Below, piece after piece: positions 2,632-14,627 of a DNA stretch of 36,546 nucleotides (its first letter is position 1; each line of letters starts with the position of its first letter). Source of the stretch: a virus (taxonomy: Duplodnaviria > Heunggongvirae > Uroviricota > Caudoviricetes); IMG/VR virus record IMGVR_UViG_2648501206_000003. The stretch is one strand, 5' to 3'. A program made the position numbers and the translations under genes. The notes beneath the pieces were generated by a model, which saw only the letters and a program-made list of their open reading frames with translations, had not been told where the DNA came from and ran no database searches.

Positions 2632-2972
2632 ATTGATAACAGAGGGCGTTGCAGCGGGGTTGTCACTTAAGCGTATGGTCAACCTGACAACCCGGTGTCC
2701 TCAACGGGGGAAGGAATAACCCCGCCATACTTACCGCCGCGCCATTTCGCGGATTGCCACAACCGGAAGCGCACGGTCGACGAAAATTTAACGACAGGCT
2801 ATCTATGAACCAGCTACCTCGCCGTGCGCTTTCGCGTTATGGTCTGACTTTTCAGGGAAATATCCTTTCAGTAAACTGTCAGTGCCGGATGCTCACCCGT
2901 GTCCGGCGCACGCACTCCACCTCACCCGTGGAGAACTCCTTAATTACCAACCTTAGCTTCGTTGGTTAGCTA

Positions 2973-3191
2973 TTAACGCGGGTATGTAATCATTCTGGCA
3001 ATGCTTAATGCCGCTGCTTTTTCCAGATTGGTGATATCCTGCTCCAGAGCGGACAGATTTTCAGCCTGCTTAGCCCTGGCTTCATTAGCCCATTTCAGAT
3101 CCTGCGCTGCATTAATTTTCTGGCGCATCCACTCATAAAGTTCATCATCGGTATAGTCTGGCGCGATTATGACGGGTTCTCGTTTCTGCAT
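2973..3191 (-). CDS. ydfC: YdfC-like small protein (72 aa)
   Basis: Track ORF; AGGAA-type RBS upstream of ATG at 3191; length and position (third small gene of the leftward operon, upstream of dicF) match Qin ydfC as recalled. Confidence 0.5.
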   Translation of the reverse strand: MQKREPVIIAPDYTDDELYEWMRQKINAAQDLKWANEARAKQAENLSALEQDITNLEKAAALSIARMITYPR

Positions 3192-3220
3192 ACTGATTCC
3201 TCGCGGTGCTACTTCGCTTA

Positions 3221-3349
3221 TCAGCCGTTAGATTTTGCCGAGCTGGAAAGCGCCTGTTTAAACTCACTGAAGCTGAGAGCTTCTTCGCCTTCGGCAAGGT
3301 CTTCGAAGTATTCTTCGTAAGCCTTTTCCATGATTGTGTCGAAATCCAT
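3221..3349 (-). CDS. ydfB: YdfB-like small acidic protein (42 aa); below the ORF-track length cutoff
   Basis: Hand translation of minus strand: ATG at 3349..3347 preceded by AGGTGAG, giving MDFDTIMEKAYEEYFEDLAEGEEALSFSEFKQALSSSAKSNG, stop at 3223..3221. Tightly packed between the ydfA-like and ydfC-like ORFs. Confidence 0.5.
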   Translation of the reverse strand: MDFDTIMEKAYEEYFEDLAEGEEALSFSEFKQALSSSAKSNG

Positions 3350-3350
3350 A

Positions 3351-3506
3351 TCACTCACCTGAGTTTCTTTCCAGCCAGCGACGGGCACCATTTTCGGTTT
3401 TAAACGTTTTGCTTTTGGTATACGTCATCGCGGTGAACGTGCCGTCCTGGTTGGGAAACACGCCGTACACCAGAGATTCGTTGTTGCCAAGATCGATAGT
3501 ATCCAT
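3351..3506 (-). CDS. ydfA: YdfA-like small protein (51 aa from internal ATG; track ORF extends to 3587)
   Basis: Internal ATG at 3506 with GAGGT 5 nt upstream gives 51 aa (MDTIDLGNNESLVYG...ARRWLERNSGE). The stop lies 1 nt from the ydfB-like ATG. Start choice is uncertain (3506 vs 3587). Confidence 0.45.
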   Translation of the reverse strand: MDTIDLGNNESLVYGVFPNQDGTFTAMTYTKSKTFKTENGARRWLERNSGE

Positions 3507-3688
3507 GCTGACCTCATTTCCCCTTAACGCTGGGGTAGCGGAACAAAAACCTGCTGCATAGTTATTAAAGTTGAACCCTGCCGTCATGTTCTTACGCCTC
3601 GGGCTGGCTACTTAACCCCTGACCACTGCCTGGTAACTCGAAGTATTGCCCTGCATTCTGTGGGGCGGGGTGGGTTGGTATGAAAAGA

Positions 3689-3729
3689 AGGATACCCATA
3701 GGTATTTAAAAAGTAAATACCCATGGGTA
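3689..3729 (-). promoter_or_regulatory. Leftward early promoter (pL-like) with two repressor operator sites
   Basis: 12-bp near-palindromes TACCCATAGGTA (3693..3704) and TACCCATGGGTA (3718..3729). On the minus strand they read -35 TTTACT, 17 bp spacer, -10 TATCCT, with the operators abutting the -35 and overlapping the -10. Same motif as the sites at 4227..4262. Confidence 0.5.
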
Positions 3730-3771
3730 ACTTTTTGCGGTGTCTTAACTGGTGACTAGTTGTTTGGTGAG

Positions 3772-4191
3772 CTATGATGCGTTTTGTGCTTTCTTTTTAC
3801 GGATTTCTTCGTAGATCATATTGTAATACTGTTTTTTCTCTTCAAGAGTTTTTAATAAGTTATCCGCTTCACTTTCTGGCAGTTCGTCTAAGAGATCTAA
3901 AAAAATACGTTGTCGTGGCGTTAGAACCCTTGTTTCATAACTGGAGGCTGTGTTCGTTGATGATGAAACGATACCATCCATCCATCCCCGGGGTAACCCA
4001 AAGGACTCTTCGATAATCTCCACCATATCATCAGCGATCCGTTTTTTTCCCTTTTTCCCCTCTGGGTACAACATTCTTGATACATAAGAAGGCTCGCGCC
4101 CGATCTTTCTGGCCACGTTAACCGCTTTACCATCGCATTTCTCATCACGAATTTTGATGAGTTGCTGTCGTCTAAATTCATATTTGTCCAT
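3772..4191 (-). CDS. Prophage repressor (DicA/RacR-like, 139 aa, no S24 peptidase domain)
   Basis: Track ORF with an N-terminal HTH-like segment (GKAVNVARKIGREPSYVSRML). C-terminal pattern LTPRQRIFLDLLDELPESEADNLL resembles DicA as recalled. Divergent from the Cro-like gene and flanked on both sides by operator repeats. Confidence 0.6.
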   Translation of the reverse strand: MDKYEFRRQQLIKIRDEKCDGKAVNVARKIGREPSYVSRMLYPEGKKGKKRIADDMVEIIEESFGLPRGWMDGIVSSSTNTASSYETRVLTPRQRIFLDLLDELPESEADNLLKTLEEKKQYYNMIYEEIRKKKAQNAS

Positions 4192-4197
4192 AGGTAA

Positions 4198-4266
4198 ATA
4201 ATAGATGCGATTACCGCAAGGTAAACAACCTGTGGGTATTGACTTTTGTTTACCTGTGGGTATTCT
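4198..4266. promoter_or_regulatory. Divergent promoter/operator region: two operators, rightward pR-like promoter, leftward pRM-like promoter giving a near-leaderless repressor mRNA
   Basis: Operators AACCTGTGGGTA (4227..4238) and TACCTGTGGGTA (4251..4262). Plus strand: -35 TTGACT (4239..4244), 16 bp spacer, -10 TATTCT (4261..4266), then AAGGAG (4281..4286) and the ATG at 4292. Minus strand: -10 TATTAT (4203..4198) only 6 nt before the repressor ATG (4191). Confidence 0.5.
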
Positions 4267-4291
4267 TTACTGTGTTTACTAAGGAGTAGCT

Positions 4292-4573
4292 ATGGAAGAA
4301 TTAAGAATATTTCTCAATTCTCTTTCGTCAGATGAACAGCGTATGTTTGCATGCGAGTGTGGTACCAGCATCGGTTATCTAAGAAAGGCATTGAGTAAAG
4401 GTCAAGTGTTAGGGGCATCGTTATGCGTCCTTATTGAGCGAGCCAGTAATGGTGAAGTTACACGTCAGCAACTAAGGCCTTTTGATTGGATGAATATTTG
4501 GCCCGAGCTGGAAGATACCAAAACGTTAACACAACCACTTTCTAGGAGCTTGATTCATGAAAATCAAGCATGA
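4292..4573 (+). CDS. Cro-like HTH regulator (YdaS-family-like)
   Basis: Track ORF with strong RBS AAGGAG; motif GEVTRQQLRPFDW is typical of YdaS/Cro-type proteins; first gene of the rightward operon, divergent from the repressor. Confidence 0.6.
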   Translation: MEELRIFLNSLSSDEQRMFACECGTSIGYLRKALSKGQVLGASLCVLIERASNGEVTRQQLRPFDWMNIWPELEDTKTLTQPLSRSLIHENQA

Positions 4574-4982
4574 ACACATCCGCATGGCGATGAATGCCTG
4601 GGCGCATCCGGACGGTGAAAAAGTTCCGGCAGCTGAAATAACCAGGGCTTATTTTGAACTGGGTATGACGTTCCCAGAACTGTATGACGACAGCCATCCG
4701 GAAGCCCTGGCTCGCAATACCCAGAAAATTTTCCGCTGGGTAGAGAAAGACACCCCTGATGCAGTTGAAAAAATTCAGGCGTTGTTACCAGCGATCGAAA
4801 AGGCAATGCCACCTTTGCTGGTGGCCAGAATGCGCAGCCACAGTTCAGCTTATTTTCGGGAGCTGGTGGAGACGCGGGAGCGACTGGTGAGAGACGCTGA
4901 TGATTTTGTCGCAGTGGCAATCGCCGGTTTCAATCAGATGAACCGTGGTGGCCCGGCAGGAAATGCTGTGGCAGTACATTGA
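4557..4982 (+). CDS. YdaT-like protein (proposed CII functional analogue in Rac-type prophages)
   Basis: Track ORF; N-terminus MKIKHEHI... recalled as YdaT-like; overlaps the Cro-like stop by 17 nt; sits second in the rightward operon as in racR-ydaS-ydaT. Confidence 0.5.
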   Translation: MKIKHEHIRMAMNAWAHPDGEKVPAAEITRAYFELGMTFPELYDDSHPEALARNTQKIFRWVEKDTPDAVEKIQALLPAIEKAMPPLLVARMRSHSSAYFRELVETRERLVRDADDFVAVAIAGFNQMNRGGPAGNAVAVH

Positions 4983-5053
4983 CTGACAATAGCCATATCG
5001 AATCGCTTCCGGCAACTCGTGAGTAAAAAGATTCGGTATCAGAAGAGGTGAGT

Positions 5054-6124
5054 ATGGCTAACGCCTGGCTCAGATTATGGCATGACATGCCAAATGACCC
5101 TAAGTGGCGAACAATTGCCAGGGTGTCAGGGCAGCCAATTGCAACAGTGATGGCAGTGTATATCCACCTCCTGGTGAGCGCGTCACGAAATGTCACGCGA
5201 GGTCACATTGATGTCACGACAGAAGATTTGGCAAGTGCGCTCGACGTGACAGAAGAGGTAATTGATTCAATTTTGCAGACGATGCAGGGGCGGGTACTTG
5301 ATGGTGATTTAATCACTGGATGGGAAAAACGCCAGGTGCTTAAAGAGGACAACGGCAATATTTCGCAAACCGCAAAATCTCCTGCAGAGCGCAAGAGGGC
5401 GCAGCGAGAGAGGGAAAGAAAGCGGGAACAAAATGGCGATTGTCACGGCGCGTCACGAAATGTCACGCACATGTCACGACGAGTCACGACAGATAAAGAT
5501 ACAGATAAAGATACAGATCAAGAAGATCAAAACACTATGGTCCATGGCGTAAAAAACGCCACGAACCAGGCAGGGGATGTTCAGACCGTCAATCTTGGTC
5601 AGCCAGCAGGCACGACACCGGAAGCCGATTCAGCGTATGCGCTGAAAGCCGATTCGGGCGCTGTGCAGCAGGTGATGACCCCAAGGCCGGAGCAATCACA
5701 CCAACTGCAGCAGCCTGAAGCCGATTCCGCCATTCAGCGGGAAGCCGATCGGGTAGTCCCGGAAAACACCGGGCTGTCTGTGGGACGAGTGGATTATCCG
5801 GATGTGTTCGAACAGGTCTGGCGGGAGTACCCGTTGCGTGCCGGAGCAAACCCGAAGAAATCCGCTTTCAGTGCCTGGAAGGCCAGATTACGCGAGGGGG
5901 TGCCACCAGAGGCCATGCTGGATGGCGTGAGGCGTTACGCAAGATACTTGGCGGCTACCGGGAAAACGGGAACGGAATTTGTTCAGCGAGCGACGACGTT
6001 TTTTGGACCGGACCGGAATTTTGAGAACCCCTGGTTGCTCCCGGTAAGCGGCACGAACAACCAGCGTTGTGTGAATCATATTTCTGAACCGGATAACGAA
6101 ATTCCGCCGGGCTTCAGGGGGTAA
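5054..6124 (+). CDS. Replication initiator (lambda O-like / replisome-organiser N-terminal domain); contains the probable origin
   Basis: Track ORF 5048..6124 (GTG); ATG at 5054 follows AGAAGAGG. N-terminus ANAWLRLWHDMPNDPKWRTIA resembles replisome-organiser/DUF1376-type initiators. Iteron arrays lie inside the coding sequence. Confidence 0.55.
   Translation: MANAWLRLWHDMPNDPKWRTIARVSGQPIATVMAVYIHLLVSASRNVTRGHIDVTTEDLASALDVTEEVIDSILQTMQGRVLDGDLITGWEKRQVLKEDNGNISQTAKSPAERKRAQRERERKREQNGDCHGASRNVTHMSRRVTTDKDTDKDTDQEDQNTMVHGVKNATNQAGDVQTVNLGQPAGTTPEADSAYALKADSGAVQQVMTPRPEQSHQLQQPEADSAIQREADRVVPENTGLSVGRVDYPDVFEQVWREYPLRAGANPKKSAFSAWKARLREGVPPEAMLDGVRRYARYLAATGKTGTEFVQRATTFFGPDRNFENPWLLPVSGTNNQRCVNHISEPDNEIPPGFRG
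5182..5218. repeat. Iteron cluster 1: four copies of GTCACG-type repeat at 10-11 bp phasing
   Basis: GTCACG at 5182, 5192, 5213 and GTCACA at 5202; block GCGTCACGAAATGTCACGC repeated again at 5450..5468. Confidence 0.55.
5442..5515. repeat. Iteron cluster 2 (five GTCACG repeats at ~10 bp phasing) plus adjacent AT-rich 12-bp tandem repeat; probable replication origin
   Basis: GTCACG at 5442, 5452, 5462, 5473, 5483; then GATAAAGATACA twice (5492..5515) in an A+T-rich stretch. Arrangement matches lambda ori lying inside gene O. Confidence 0.55.
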
Positions 6125-6164
6125 GTGTTAATTTCTGGTCATGAGGTAATTTTCAGGAGGACTT

Positions 6165-6590
6165 GTGGCAAAAGTTTTTACACAAGAAGAGCGGGAAAAA
6201 ATTAAAGGGCAGGTTGTTGAACTCGTACGCCGGAGTGGGCGCGAGACGTTACGGCAACTGGAAGCCAAGACAGGTGCGACAAGATATCTGATGAGCGTTC
6301 TTGCCAGAGAGCTGGTTGCCAGTGGCGATGTATACAACTCTGGTTACGGGTTATTCCCGTCTGAACAGGCGCGTAAGGACTGGCAAAATGCCCGCAAAAA
6401 ACTCTCAAGGGCAAAGGTGAAGAAACCTGCAGTGGTTGATCCGGACCTTATCTGGTCGTTACCAGACGGCGAAATACGCCGCTACGACAGGCGCCTGAAT
6501 ATAATCTGTCGCGAGTGCCGGAAGAGCGAAGCTATGCAGCGTGTACTGGCATTTTATCAAGGAAATGTTAGGTATTTTAGACGTTACTAG
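6165..6590 (+). CDS. Hypothetical protein (141 aa, possible winged-helix segment, C-terminal CxxC)
   Basis: Track ORF, GTG start preceded by AGGAGG; no family recognised; sits where lambdoid phages usually carry the helicase-loader gene. Confidence 0.45.
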   Translation: MAKVFTQEEREKIKGQVVELVRRSGRETLRQLEAKTGATRYLMSVLARELVASGDVYNSGYGLFPSEQARKDWQNARKKLSRAKVKKPAVVDPDLIWSLPDGEIRRYDRRLNIICRECRKSEAMQRVLAFYQGNVRYFRRY

Positions 6591-6743
6591 ATTAAAGAGC
6601 ATTAGTTCAGATGTGAATTGACATTTTCATGGCGCAGGGTAGAGCCAGCGTGGTTGTCCGCTTTGCGTCAAAACCAGATATTACCAGATTTAGACATATA
6701 TTCCCGATAGCCCTGCTCTGATGCTACACTCTGTGCTATTTTC

Positions 6744-7430
6744 ATGACCCCAATAAAAATATTTATGACTATTGCTGATTTCAAACGGCCTAAATTGGAG
6801 CTCCCAAACGGGGCAAACAAACTACTACTGCACTCTTGCTGTGCTCCATGTTCCGGTGAAGTGATGGAGGCGCTTCAGGCCTCGGGAATCGACTACACCA
6901 TCTTTTTCTACAACCCGAACATTCATCCTCAGAAAGAGTATTTAATTCGTAAGGATGAAAATATTCGCTTTGCTGAACAACACGGCGTGCCGTTTATCGA
7001 TGCTGATTACGACACCGACAACTGGTTTGAACGTGCCAAAGGAATGGAATGGGAGCCTGAGAGGGGGATCCGTTGTACCATGTGTTTTGACATGCGTTTT
7101 GAGCGGACAGCGTTGTACGCTGCTGAAAATGGTTTCAGTGTGATCAGCAGTTCACTGGGCATTTCACGCTGGAAAAATATGCAGCAGGTTAACGAGTGTG
7201 GGCGGCGAGCTGTTGCGCATTATCCGGGTATGGTGTACTGGGATTATAACTGGCGCAAGCAGGGCGGCTCGTCCCGTATGATTGAAATCAGCAAGCGCGA
7301 AAAATTCTATCAGCAGGAATATTGTGGCTGTGTGTATTCTCTGCGCGATACCAATCTACACCGCAAATCTCAGGGACGCCCTCTTATCAAAATTGGCCAA
7401 CTCCACTACGGAAAAGAAGAGAAGGAGTGA
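6744..7430 (+). CDS. DUF208 / QueH-like protein (candidate epoxyqueuosine reductase family); cargo gene
   Basis: Track ORF; motifs [11 protein letters not shown] and FFYNPNIHP recalled as signatures of the DUF208/QueH family; further Cys pairs (CTMC, CGC). Start could be 6744 or 6765. Confidence 0.5.
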
Positions 7431-7610
7431 TTTTATGGATCACCTTTCTGATTGATTTCATATTGGCGAGGTGACGTGAGTTAAGTAGAATGGCTGCGGG
7501 TGCTTGAGGCTATCTGTCTCAGGCATGAACACTGAAAGGCAGATAGAGAAAAGCCCCAGTTAACATTACGCGTCCGGCAAGACGCTTAACATTAATCTGA
7601 GGCTCAATCT

Positions 7611-7823
7611 ATGAACGGCAAATCTAGGTTAGCCTCTTACGTGCCGAAAGGCAAGGAGAAGCAGGCTATGAAGCAGCAAAAGGCGATGTTAATCGCCCTG
7701 ATCGTCATCTGTTTAACCGTCATTGTGACGGCACTGGTAACGAGGAAAGACCTCTGCGAGGTACGAATCCGAACCGGCCAGACGGAGGTCACTGTCTTCA
7801 CAGCTTACGAACCTGAGGAGTAA
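7611..7823 (+). CDS. mok: Mok (modulator of killing) reading frame, N-terminally extended over hok
   Basis: Track ORF of 70 aa whose last 51 residues are the Hok toxin, as in chromosomal mok/hok loci. Confidence 0.6.
   Translation: MNGKSRLASYVPKGKEKQAMKQQKAMLIALIVICLTVIVTALVTRKDLCEVRIRTGQTEVTVFTAYEPEE
7668..7823 (+). CDS. hok: Hok-family type I toxin (51 aa, HokD/RelF-like)
   Basis: MKQQKAMLIALIVICLTVIVTALVTRKDLCEVRIRTGQTEVTVFTAYEPEE, near-identical to HokD as recalled; AAGGAGAAG upstream of the ATG; stable hairpin GGCGGGGGAGAAATCCCTCGCC downstream (7831..7852). Confidence 0.85.
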   Translation: MKQQKAMLIALIVICLTVIVTALVTRKDLCEVRIRTGQTEVTVFTAYEPEE

Positions 7824-7966
7824 GAGACCAGGCGGGGGAGAAATCCCTCGCCACCTCTGATGTGTCAGGCATCCTCAACGCACCCGCACTTAACCCGCTT
7901 CGGCGTTTTTTCCGTTGATTAACTCTAGTTATTAGAGAACCGAACTTTTATTGATGGGGCAGGGAG

Positions 7967-8359
7967 ATGAAGAAACTTGTTTTAGTCGCAGGTGTAATGA
8001 TTGCAACAGTAATGTTGGGAGGGTGTGCAGCAAAGGTCGATCCAGCGTTGAAAGCAGAAGCAATGAAGCCACTAACATGTAATGATGAAAAGCAATGTGA
8101 CTTTTATTGGAAACGAGCGCAATTCTGGTTGGCTAATAATTCCTCATGGAAAATTCAAACGGCGACAGACACGCTAATTTCCACTTATAATCCCTCTCCA
8201 AATAGTCCATTCCTCGCTTATCAAGTGAGTAAAATGCCAAATGAAGATGGATCCTCAAGAATTTTCATCAAGCCTTTTTGCGATAATATGTTTGGCTGTC
8301 AACCAAACCCCTATCAGACAGTTGTTTCCTTTAAAAACTTCGTTAAAACTGGGCAGTAA
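7967..8359 (+). CDS. Putative lipoprotein (130 aa); cargo gene
   Basis: Signal peptide with lipobox MLGGC near the N-terminus; visibly A+T-richer than flanking genes; followed by an intrinsic terminator. Confidence 0.55.
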   Translation: MKKLVLVAGVMIATVMLGGCAAKVDPALKAEAMKPLTCNDEKQCDFYWKRAQFWLANNSSWKIQTATDTLISTYNPSPNSPFLAYQVSKMPNEDGSSRIFIKPFCDNMFGCQPNPYQTVVSFKNFVKTGQ

Positions 8360-11068: not shown

Positions 11069-11965
11069 ATGCATGCGTTTAATTACTTTTTGGACCATTG
11101 CAACATGAAATCAGATAAGGCAGAAAACTTAGAGAATCCACTCGAACGTAATGATTTTACAATTGATGACTTCCACCATGTTCTTAGGGAGTTTGATAAA
11201 GCTGTTTGTGAAGCCAATGCGGTAAGTCAGGGAGTAGGTGTGCGAATGGCTGAGGCTTATCAAGGTTGGTCAACATATATATTTGCACGAATTTGCATTC
11301 ATGCTTCGATTATGATTTCTAATGTTCCTAAGTCCAGATGGGCTAAGCGAGATTACGATTTCTGGGATTTTGCTTCTATAGCATCTCATGTCAGGGCGAT
11401 CCTTGAAGCTGAACTTCTGTTTATGTATTTGTCTGAAGCACCAGATTCAGAAGAGGCTTGGTCAGCAAAGCTAAATGTTATGCACATGAATGATTGTGTA
11501 AAAAGGATAGAATTATTCACGCAAAGTGATAATACAGAAGCATTAGAGTTTTATAATGAGCAACAGAGTATAATTGCGGAAAGACTCAATAAAAACCCTG
11601 CTTTTTTATCACTTGATAGTGGTACTAGGAAACGTTGCTTGTCAGGCAAGGCTTTAACAATTCCTAATAGAGACGATTTATTGATTAAACTAGGGAAAGA
11701 CCCAAAATCGTTTAAAGTGATGTTTGATTTTCTATCGCATTACACACACATACTCCCTATGTCATATTACAAAATGGAACCGAATGGGAGAGGGACTGGT
11801 TGTTTTAACAAGTTCGATTTTGGATATATAATAATGGGTATGTTGCTATGTACTGAATCTTTGATTAAGTGTACTGAACGGTTGGTGGATATTTTCCCTG
11901 ATGTTAAACGGTTAAGAAAAGGAACTAAATCAAAATTTACATTGGGCCCTAAACCAACAAAATAA
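11069..11965 (+). CDS. Hypothetical protein, 298 aa, A+T-rich cargo gene of unknown function at the Q/lysis junction
   Basis: Track ORF; my manual count of the first 60 nt gives ~35% GC versus ~52% in terL; no recognisable family motif; no obvious SD at either candidate start (11069 or 11105); own terminator-like hairpin downstream. Confidence 0.55.
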   Translation: MHAFNYFLDHCNMKSDKAENLENPLERNDFTIDDFHHVLREFDKAVCEANAVSQGVGVRMAEAYQGWSTYIFARICIHASIMISNVPKSRWAKRDYDFWDFASIASHVRAILEAELLFMYLSEAPDSEEAWSAKLNVMHMNDCVKRIELFTQSDNTEALEFYNEQQSIIAERLNKNPAFLSLDSGTRKRCLSGKALTIPNRDDLLIKLGKDPKSFKVMFDFLSHYTHILPMSYYKMEPNGRGTGCFNKFDFGYIIMGMLLCTESLIKCTERLVDIFPDVKRLRKGTKSKFTLGPKPTK

Positions 11966-14087: not shown

Positions 14088-14627
14088 TTAGAAACTGCGT
14101 GGAGCTGTGGAAAGAATGGATGCCAGTTCTTCCTTTGATAAATCCCAGCTTCGATTTACAGCGTCAATTTTCTTAAACTCATCAAGCATTGCGTTATAGA
14201 GATGTTCTGTACGTGAATGAGTATTGGCAATGGGCTGTTTCTGTTCGGGGAAGCGATCAATTTTCTGATACGCCTCAATGATACTGAAGTAATCGCATTC
14301 ATTATTACCGTCGAAACCTGGGAGCTGAATTTCCCCATCATGTATTTTTAGATGATGGTCACGGACTAATTCTTTTTGCTCGTCATCACTAAGTTTCCTG
14401 AAAGCATTGGAAAGTCCGCGGTACATATTCAATACAGCAGTAACAAAATCACGATCTTCTTTACTTGGTTCATCAACATCCAAATGTGAATATTCGGCCT
14501 TCATAACCCAATCATTACCAGATGACACAGCATATTTTACAAGCTGTGGATCAATATCAGTTTCGATACCTAGGTGGATGGCAATGTCACATAACAAAAT
14601 GGTATTGATTTTATCCTTAATATCCAT
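14088..14627 (-). CDS. YfbU-family (UPF0304-like) protein, 179 aa; antisense A+T-rich cargo gene between lysis and packaging modules
   Basis: Track ORF on the opposite strand to all flanking phage genes; segments VTAVLNMYRGLSNAFRKL, GFDGNNECDYFSIIEAY and THSRTEHLYNAML parallel E. coli YfbU as recalled; own terminator. Confidence 0.5.
   Translation of the reverse strand: MDIKDKINTILLCDIAIHLGIETDIDPQLVKYAVSSGNDWVMKAEYSHLDVDEPSKEDRDFVTAVLNMYRGLSNAFRKLSDDEQKELVRDHHLKIHDGEIQLPGFDGNNECDYFSIIEAYQKIDRFPEQKQPIANTHSRTEHLYNAMLDEFKKIDAVNRSWDLSKEELASILSTAPRSF

Follow-up and report, generated by a model that had tools for sequence, protein, structure and literature searches.

The window, by which we mean the whole stretch of DNA analysed here (36,546 nucleotides; IMG/VR record IMGVR_UViG_2648501206_000003, a virus of the Caudoviricetes), corresponds, with 100% identity, to a lambdoid prophage that E. 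coli VTB97379v carries beside tRNA-Ser/mtfA. The first part of the prophage comprises, in order, exonuclease, dicB, ydfABC-like genes, repressor/cro-like genes, YdaT, a replisome organiser, a DUF977 (Ren-like) gene, and queH. After queH follow hokD, small ORFs, DUF968, rusA, Q, and the lysis, terminase, head and tail genes. An earlier note on this DNA, made from the sequence alone, had described queH as cargo in the early-right region. This position agrees with the annotation, where the gene lies between the replication/Ren-like genes on one side and hok/sok, DUF968, rusA and Q on the other. The integrase gene by tRNA-Ser, at 3152-4202 of the flanking locus upstream of the window, is annotated as frameshifted, and the prophage may therefore be unable to excise. 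The genes at the locus are:

6165..6590, plus strand: DUF977 / Ren-like exclusion protein gene (RefSeq DUF977; phrog_142, Ren-like exclusion protein)
6744..6764, plus strand: seven extra in-frame codons (MTPIKIF), not conserved at the N-termini of homologs and probably 5' leader rather than coding
6765..7430, plus strand: queH coding sequence from the conserved start, 221 aa, RefSeq WP_000150294.1, "epoxyqueuosine reductase QueH"
7498..7823, plus strand: hok/sok-type type I toxin-antitoxin locus (Rfam sok RF01794, 111.9 bits, at 7498-7673; mok/hok ORF at 7611-7823; RefSeq hokD)

The open reading frame at 6744..7430 (plus strand, stop codon included) encodes 228 aa. It contains an 11-letter motif at aa 27-37, the motif FFYNPNIHP at aa 54-62, and the Cys pairs CTMC (C111/C114) and CGC (C194/C196). 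The preceding gene stops at 6590, leaving 6591-6743 as an intergenic spacer. Three observations bear on the start codon. RefSeq starts queH at the second ATG, position 6765 (WP_000150294.1); the N-termini of ~60 homologs line up with MTIADFKRP and not with the seven codons before 6765; and in the divergent prophage allele of EcPF15 the matching upstream stretch opens with ATT and has an in-frame TAA. All three favour the ATG at 6765 as the conserved start. The earlier note had given the gene a span of 6591-7430 and a 228-aa protein. The reading frame and both motifs are as described there, while the start moves to 6765, with 221 aa conserved, and 6591-6743 is non-genic.

The prophage protein is a member of the QueH family, COG1636. 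It matches the Pfam profile PF02677 (QueH, formerly DUF208) with 221.5 bits at a cut-off of 23.5 (E 1.1e-65) and covers positions 1-174 of 175, which places the DUF208/QueH membership proposed in the earlier note far beyond chance. In a sequence search of the PDB, residues 4-178 match Thermotoga maritima QueH (TmQueH; 7lc5) with an E-value of 8e-22, and the only solved relatives are TmQueH structures (7lc5, 7lc7, 9deu and two mutants). Identity to the crystallised enzyme is 31%. An AlphaFold2 model of the product, built from 23 sequences, is of moderate confidence only (pLDDT 70.5, pTM 0.71). When this model was compared with the PDB by Foldseek, the top five matches were all TmQueH (target-normalised TM 0.76-0.78, E about 1e-9), and the next, much weaker matches were other tRNA enzymes of the adenine-nucleotide alpha-hydrolase fold. 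No NCBIfam model matches the queH product, and its naming consequently rests on Pfam, PDB and RefSeq.

Li et al. in 2021 reportedly described QueH as carrying a [4Fe-4S] cluster and, next to it, a single iron with two Cys and one Asp as ligands. The cysteine motifs of the prophage protein are:

6837..6851, plus strand: CCAPC motif; Cys25, Cys26 and Cys29 in the 221-aa protein (C32/C33/C36 in the 228-aa frame), aligned to T. maritima C9, C10 and D13
7074..7085, plus strand: CxxC motif; Cys104 and Cys107 in the 221-aa protein (C111 and C114 in the 228-aa frame), aligned to T. maritima C87 and C90
7323..7331, plus strand: CGC motif; Cys187 and Cys189 in the 221-aa protein (C194 and C196 in the 228-aa frame), aligned to T. 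maritima C169 and C171

Conservation of these residues was assessed in a family alignment of 85 diverse full-length representatives, drawn from the 4,774 proteins that an exhaustive search over 1.84 billion cluster representatives gave at E <= 0.001. All seven conserved Cys columns are intact in the queH product, including all six T. maritima cysteines, and the Fe-S ligands, which the earlier note had named as a point of comparison, thus agree with those of characterised QueH. At the column of Cys36 (228-aa numbering), occupied by Asp13 in T. maritima, Cys is the majority residue (71 of the 77 aligned sequences having a residue there). Judged from the alignment, CCAPC is the family norm and the T. 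maritima Asp13 is the exception. An eighth cysteine, C152, is not conserved in the family alignment. The PDB contains C9S and D13N mutants of TmQueH, which fits a functional importance of those residues. The prophage protein is like TmQueH and the QueH family in its full-length domain, all conserved cysteines and its predicted fold. It differs in that its gene resides on temperate phages and prophages rather than at a chromosomal housekeeping locus, in having Cys and not Asp at T. maritima position 13, and in that its activity is predicted.

The earlier note had seen no other queuosine or 7-deazaguanine genes beside queH, and the RefSeq annotation of the entire prophage agrees: FolE, QueC, QueD, QueE, QueF, Tgt, DpdA and QueA are all absent from it. 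A survey of other prophages for linked queC, queD, queE or dpdA, which the note had suggested, gave the same picture in every context examined, that is, the O104:H4 ompW prophage, phage HannyBb, the Qin-like prophage of E. coli B, and one Rac-like prophage. There are no tRNA genes in the window and hence no phage-borne Q-family tRNA. These absences bear on the idea that queH serves a different pathway, either 7-deazaguanine modification of phage DNA or a phage-host conflict (for example over the susceptibility of tRNA to anticodon nucleases) as part of an exclusion module that also comprises the Ren-like protein and Hok. The neighbours, a Ren-like exclusion protein and a toxin-antitoxin locus, would suit such a role, and phages do use 7-deazaguanine chemistry for DNA protection (PMC6884629). 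However, the prophage and four other contexts have no DpdA/Tgt-like transglycosylase or preQ0 genes, the PADLOC defence models have no match for QueH or its neighbours, and a changed substrate is unlikely for a near-housekeeping sequence under the same constraint. The phage clusters for 7-deazaguanine DNA modification (DpdA with FolE/QueD/QueE/QueC) share with the prophage gene a link to queuosine/7-deazaguanine chemistry, but the prophage has none of their defining genes, and Hutinet et al. 2019 found no QueA, QueG or QueH in them (PMC6884629). We consider a different pathway very unlikely.

queH sits in a ~1.6-kb mosaic module consisting of the Ren-like DUF977 gene, queH and hok/sok. This was found by comparing the window with the best 80 of 189 IMG/VR viral loci at an identity of >=95% at the nucleotide level, where some loci meet contig ends and all counts are thus lower bounds. 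Among these 80 loci, such identity is limited to about 6250-7750, the stretch of the DUF977 gene, queH and hok/sok. It extends over queH (with DUF977) in at least 65-70 of the 80 loci and over hok in at least 52. The upstream replication genes are common to at least 12-16 of the 80, and the downstream lipoprotein-like ORF to at least 8. The carriers of the module are lambdoid, Rac-like and Qin-like prophages with otherwise unlike neighbours. queH is thus found in a prophage between conserved phage modules and is variably present among related phages, as is characteristic of morons or auxiliary genes.

The slot preceding hokD appears to be a hot spot for cargo. In K-12, Qin has relBE and not queH in this slot, and Rac is deleted right after ydaW and has no queH. 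The more complete Rac-like prophage of EcPF15 has DUF977 and queH in that slot. Compared with E. coli B-LamR, the Qin-like prophage of BL21(DE3) lacks 1,361 bp (6592-7952 of the B-LamR locus) in a clean deletion whose flanks are 100% identical. Lost are all of queH, a methyltransferase fragment and the terminal part of the DUF977 gene. In E. coli B-LamR queH is intact even though the Qin-like prophage around it has decayed, carrying an IS3 insertion and truncated forms of the tail and DUF968 genes. An E. coli B derivative with queH and BL21(DE3), in which queH is deleted, form a natural near-isogenic pair for QueH function.

Some further genes of the window resemble cargo in position or composition. 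A 130-aa ORF at 7967-8359 has a lipoprotein signal (MKKLVLVAGVMIATVMLGGC, lipobox LGGC) and matches phrog_16082, for which no function is annotated. It has a low GC content (~40%), is found in only 8 of the 80 related viral loci, and is a second candidate cargo gene. A gene for a DUF5677 protein (11105-11965), without PHROG or PADLOC match, lies just downstream of the Q antiterminator, the slot that Stx and other cargo occupy in lambdoid phages. A YfbU-family gene on the minus strand (14088-14627; phrog_6084, labelled unknown function) is located between the lysis and the HNH/terminase genes.

Of 5,426 complete E. coli genomes, 995 (about 18%) contain the queH coding sequence, and 1,032 give a match when the query includes the upstream spacer. 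In 985 of the 995, one place spans at least 80% of queH, and this place is almost always chromosomal. queH-positive E. coli include O104:H4, O157:H7, avian pathogenic (APEC) and E. coli B isolates, and every row among the matches listed bears the RefSeq name QueH. The earlier note had called a phage-borne QueH unexpected, which is overstated given that PGAP already names the gene QueH and that about 18% of complete E. coli genomes carry it. In IMG/VR, queH occurs on 189 viral contigs, of which the best 80 all show 100% protein identity. Among GenBank phage records, the isolated Escherichia phage HannyBb alone clearly carries queH (95% aa identity), annotated as 'hypothetical protein'. Other 'phage' database matches, at 32-78% identity, were faecal contigs without annotation, or records so large that their viral origin is doubtful, and were not counted as phage carriage. 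With one genome considered per species, E. albertii is the only species that shares the prophage neighbours.

Outside Escherichia, the nearest proteins are encoded in non-phage contexts, in Scandinavium (92% identity), Kluyvera (91%) and Enterobacter (88-90%). Overall, prophage QueH and the chromosomal QueH of other Enterobacterales are 78-92% identical. The chromosomal contexts differ among genera, as checked with the neighbours in Erwinia and Providencia: the Erwinia gene (86%) is flanked by purL and glrK, in surroundings that otherwise keep the gene order of E. coli, and the Providencia gene (84%) is located beside tmcA. QueH is unusually conserved, with 75-80% identity even in Sphingomonas, Stenotrophomonas and Neisseria, and Acinetobacter sequences are 77.7% identical to prophage QueH. 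Because it is close to chromosomal QueH and the family is highly conserved, prophage queH looks like a captured housekeeping gene and not like a diverged phage paralogue. The GC composition of queH is not distinct from its flanks and is too weak a signal to point to a donor. In Enterobacter sp. ECC-175 (locus 2677-5669), icd and a small lipoprotein-like gene immediately precede a queH homolog. Since prophages are known to integrate at the 3' end of icd in E. coli, this homolog may sit on the remnant of an integrated element.

Prophage queH is under strong purifying selection, in the same range as the chromosomal alleles. We compared the prophage alleles of the window, HannyBb, E. coli B and EcPF15. 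Pairwise amino acid identity is 96.4-99.5% and dS is up to 0.46. Alleles that differ by a dS of 0.27-0.46 give a dN/dS of 0.03-0.065. For chromosomal alleles of other genera, dN/dS is 0.02-0.04. The low dN/dS between prophage alleles implies that nonsynonymous changes were purged during prophage residence. This speaks against queH being a neutral hitch-hiker, functional or recently so, that is carried along with the Ren-like/hok-sok module without benefit to phage or host, and so does the fact that nearly all copies are full length. The patchy presence among E. coli genomes, the clean loss in BL21(DE3), the K-12 prophages without queH, and the redundancy with queG would all be expected of such a passenger. 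Weighing both sides, we hold neutral carriage to be quite improbable.

The region upstream of queH contains the following element:

6722..6730, plus strand: TGcTACACT, a predicted promoter element of the extended -10 type located about 43 nt before the ATG at 6765 and recognised by comparative conservation

An alignment was made of the 180 nt that precede queH in four prophage alleles and in three chromosomal ones from unrelated contexts. In these seven divergent alleles, TGCTACA is the sole invariant upstream block and reads as TGcTACACT or TGcTACAAT, and the rest is unalignable. Similar elements ((g)CTACAnT, TGCTATATT) occur at -40 to -49 in many other Enterobacterales. The element at 6722-6730 has the extended -10 form (TGnTAnnnT). 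Transcription starting near 6735-6738 would leave the ATG at 6744 almost leaderless, which is consistent with 6765 as the real start. This conservation suggests that queH brought its own promoter, and the predicted element may drive its expression in the lysogen. A generic sigma-70 two-hexamer scan called no promoter near queH, and the queH 5' region folds no better than shuffled sequences (z -1.07). An Rfam search at permissive E-value found only sok, downstream, with no preQ1 riboswitch or other family upstream of queH. A terminator scan of 6000-8100 gave no terminator-like site, so the terminator of its own that would mark a moron is not seen here. The prophage gene is like other lambdoid morons of the nin/early-right region (e.g., relBE upstream of hokD in K-12 Qin) in being small, variable cargo between phage modules, with a predicted promoter of its own. 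It differs from these in that the cargo is a tRNA-modification enzyme, that no terminator was detected, and that its GC content is like that of the flanks.

The same QueH activity could instead serve lytic growth, as part of a delayed-early right operon in which tRNA with epoxyqueuosine (oQ) would quickly be converted to queuosine (Q) tRNA, to the benefit of the translation of somewhat NAU-richer late genes in B12-poor hosts. queH lies on the same strand as the replication genes, DUF968, rusA and Q in the early-right operon, and with no terminator-like site or scanned promoter around it the gene may be transcribed only by early-right read-through. The -10-like upstream element common to the chromosomal alleles argues, on the contrary, for autonomous transcription, and in E. 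coli B queH is intact in a defective prophage that is no longer capable of lytic growth. NAU makes up 0.586 of the Asn/Asp/His/Tyr codons in the prophage and 0.515 in a sample of host genes, but this difference is small, typical of phage DNA and not diagnostic. We further know of no effect of oQ as opposed to Q on decoding, which we count against the lytic role. All in all, we judge a lytic function to be rather unlikely.

E. coli encodes tgt and queA, and its QueG, which uses cobalamin and [4Fe-4S], converts oQ to Q. Like most users of cobamides, E. coli takes up the cofactor from outside instead of synthesising it. The earlier note's statement that E. coli uses QueG holds for this host, in whose chromosome queG is intact and lies next to nnr/tsaE, its normal position. 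In the Q pathway, GTP cyclohydrolase, QueD, QueE, QueC and QueF lead to preQ1, which Tgt puts at position 34 of tRNA-Asp, -Asn, -His and -Tyr and which QueA turns into oQ (PMC10570037, PMC9508795). According to a passage in PMC4646009 that cites Frey et al. 1988, the step from oQ to Q has long been known to be cobamide-dependent. Single-gene knock-outs of yjeS/queG in K-12 accumulate oQ (PMC4646009), which fits with the lack of queH in K-12, and QueG is among four cobamide-dependent enzymes of E. coli (PMC11841063). QueH performs the same reaction as QueG with iron only, as stated in a passage of PMC13443448 citing Li 2021. S. aureus is described as having QueG and QueH as redundant enzymes with different cofactors (PMC13443448), and the pairing of the two, also found in some streptococci, has been read as an adaptation to cofactor supply (PMC13443448, PMC12632869).

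E. coli strains with this prophage resemble the organisms with both QueG and QueH (Acinetobacter baylyi ADP1, Staphylococcus aureus and some streptococci) in having two non-orthologous enzymes with different cofactors for one step. They differ in that the second enzyme is encoded on a mobile prophage module and is strain-variable within one species. Zallot et al. (ACS Chem Biol, 2017) are said to have restored the oQ-to-Q step in an E. coli queG mutant with duf208 genes from several bacteria, and reportedly detected no cobalamin in recombinant QueH. In the same study, Acinetobacter baylyi reportedly lost Q only after deletion of both queG and queH. Prophage QueH shares with QueG the predicted reaction, the four tRNAs and the cell. 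The two are not homologous, and QueG needs cobalamin whereas QueH reportedly does not.

Taking the evidence together, we think it likely that the prophage encodes a functional, cobalamin-independent Fe-S QueH that was captured from an enterobacterial chromosome and travels as cargo (a 'moron') of Escherichia prophages, probably with its own promoter. We infer both the enzymatic activity of prophage QueH in E. coli and any fitness benefit. Host Tgt and QueA would bring tRNA-Asp, -Asn, -His and -Tyr to the oQ stage, and prophage QueH would reduce oQ34 to queuosine on those host tRNAs. Completion of Q-tRNA in the lysogen would then become independent of the B12 supply, with QueH as a backup for host QueG. 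Because prophage QueH is intact and strongly conserved, lysogens probably have such a backup for the B12-dependent enzyme. That QueH finishes the host's own tRNA queuosine pathway is the simplest reading. Of the roles offered in the earlier note, alteration of host tRNA modification is therefore kept, and a separate nucleoside or DNA modification pathway finds no support. Counting against our main reading, only about 18% of E. coli have queH, the presence of QueG makes queH redundant whenever B12 is available, and we know of no consequence of the absence of queH in K-12 and BL21(DE3) and of no established physiological difference between oQ-tRNA and Q-tRNA.

A further proposal is that the module is kept because the oQ/Q state matters in conflict or niche adaptation, with QueH freeing Q completion from cobalamin uptake by BtuB, a receptor for colicins and phages. 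We rate this proposal as unlikely. If it were true, lysogens, including btuB-resistant mutants, would keep fully modified tRNA, and effects would be expected on the translation of NAU-rich genes, on virulence, or on sensitivity to Q-dependent anticodon nucleases. In that case, no phage gene before queH would have been shown to finish a host tRNA hypermodification as a form of lysogenic conversion.

The identity of the gene is already known, as PGAP and RefSeq name it QueH, and its spread on phages seems to be undescribed. A literature search for QueH with prophage or phage, and for DUF208, found no paper on prophage-borne QueH in E. coli. In PHROGs the family is phrog_3217 (460 bits), labelled 'unknown function', and this profile begins at residue 34, past CCAPC. 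The ORFs behind phrog_3217 appear to have been called from an internal Met, with loss of the CCAPC metal-binding motif. A survey of phage 7-deazaguanine genes recorded no QueH in viruses (PMC6884629). Together with the 'unknown function' in PHROGs and the 'hypothetical' label in HannyBb, this amounts to an annotation gap. Prophage queH is an ordinary-looking enzyme in a slightly unexpected vehicle. The Q status of tRNA influences how Asn, Asp, His and Tyr codons are decoded. Links to biofilm formation, to virulence and to metal and oxidative stress have also been reported. Based on K-12, which has no queH, the last Q step in E. coli is treated as QueG- and B12-dependent. Should prophage QueH be active, queuosine would be completed without B12 in roughly a fifth of E. 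coli strains, and this tRNA-modification phenotype would be strain-variable and transmissible by phage.
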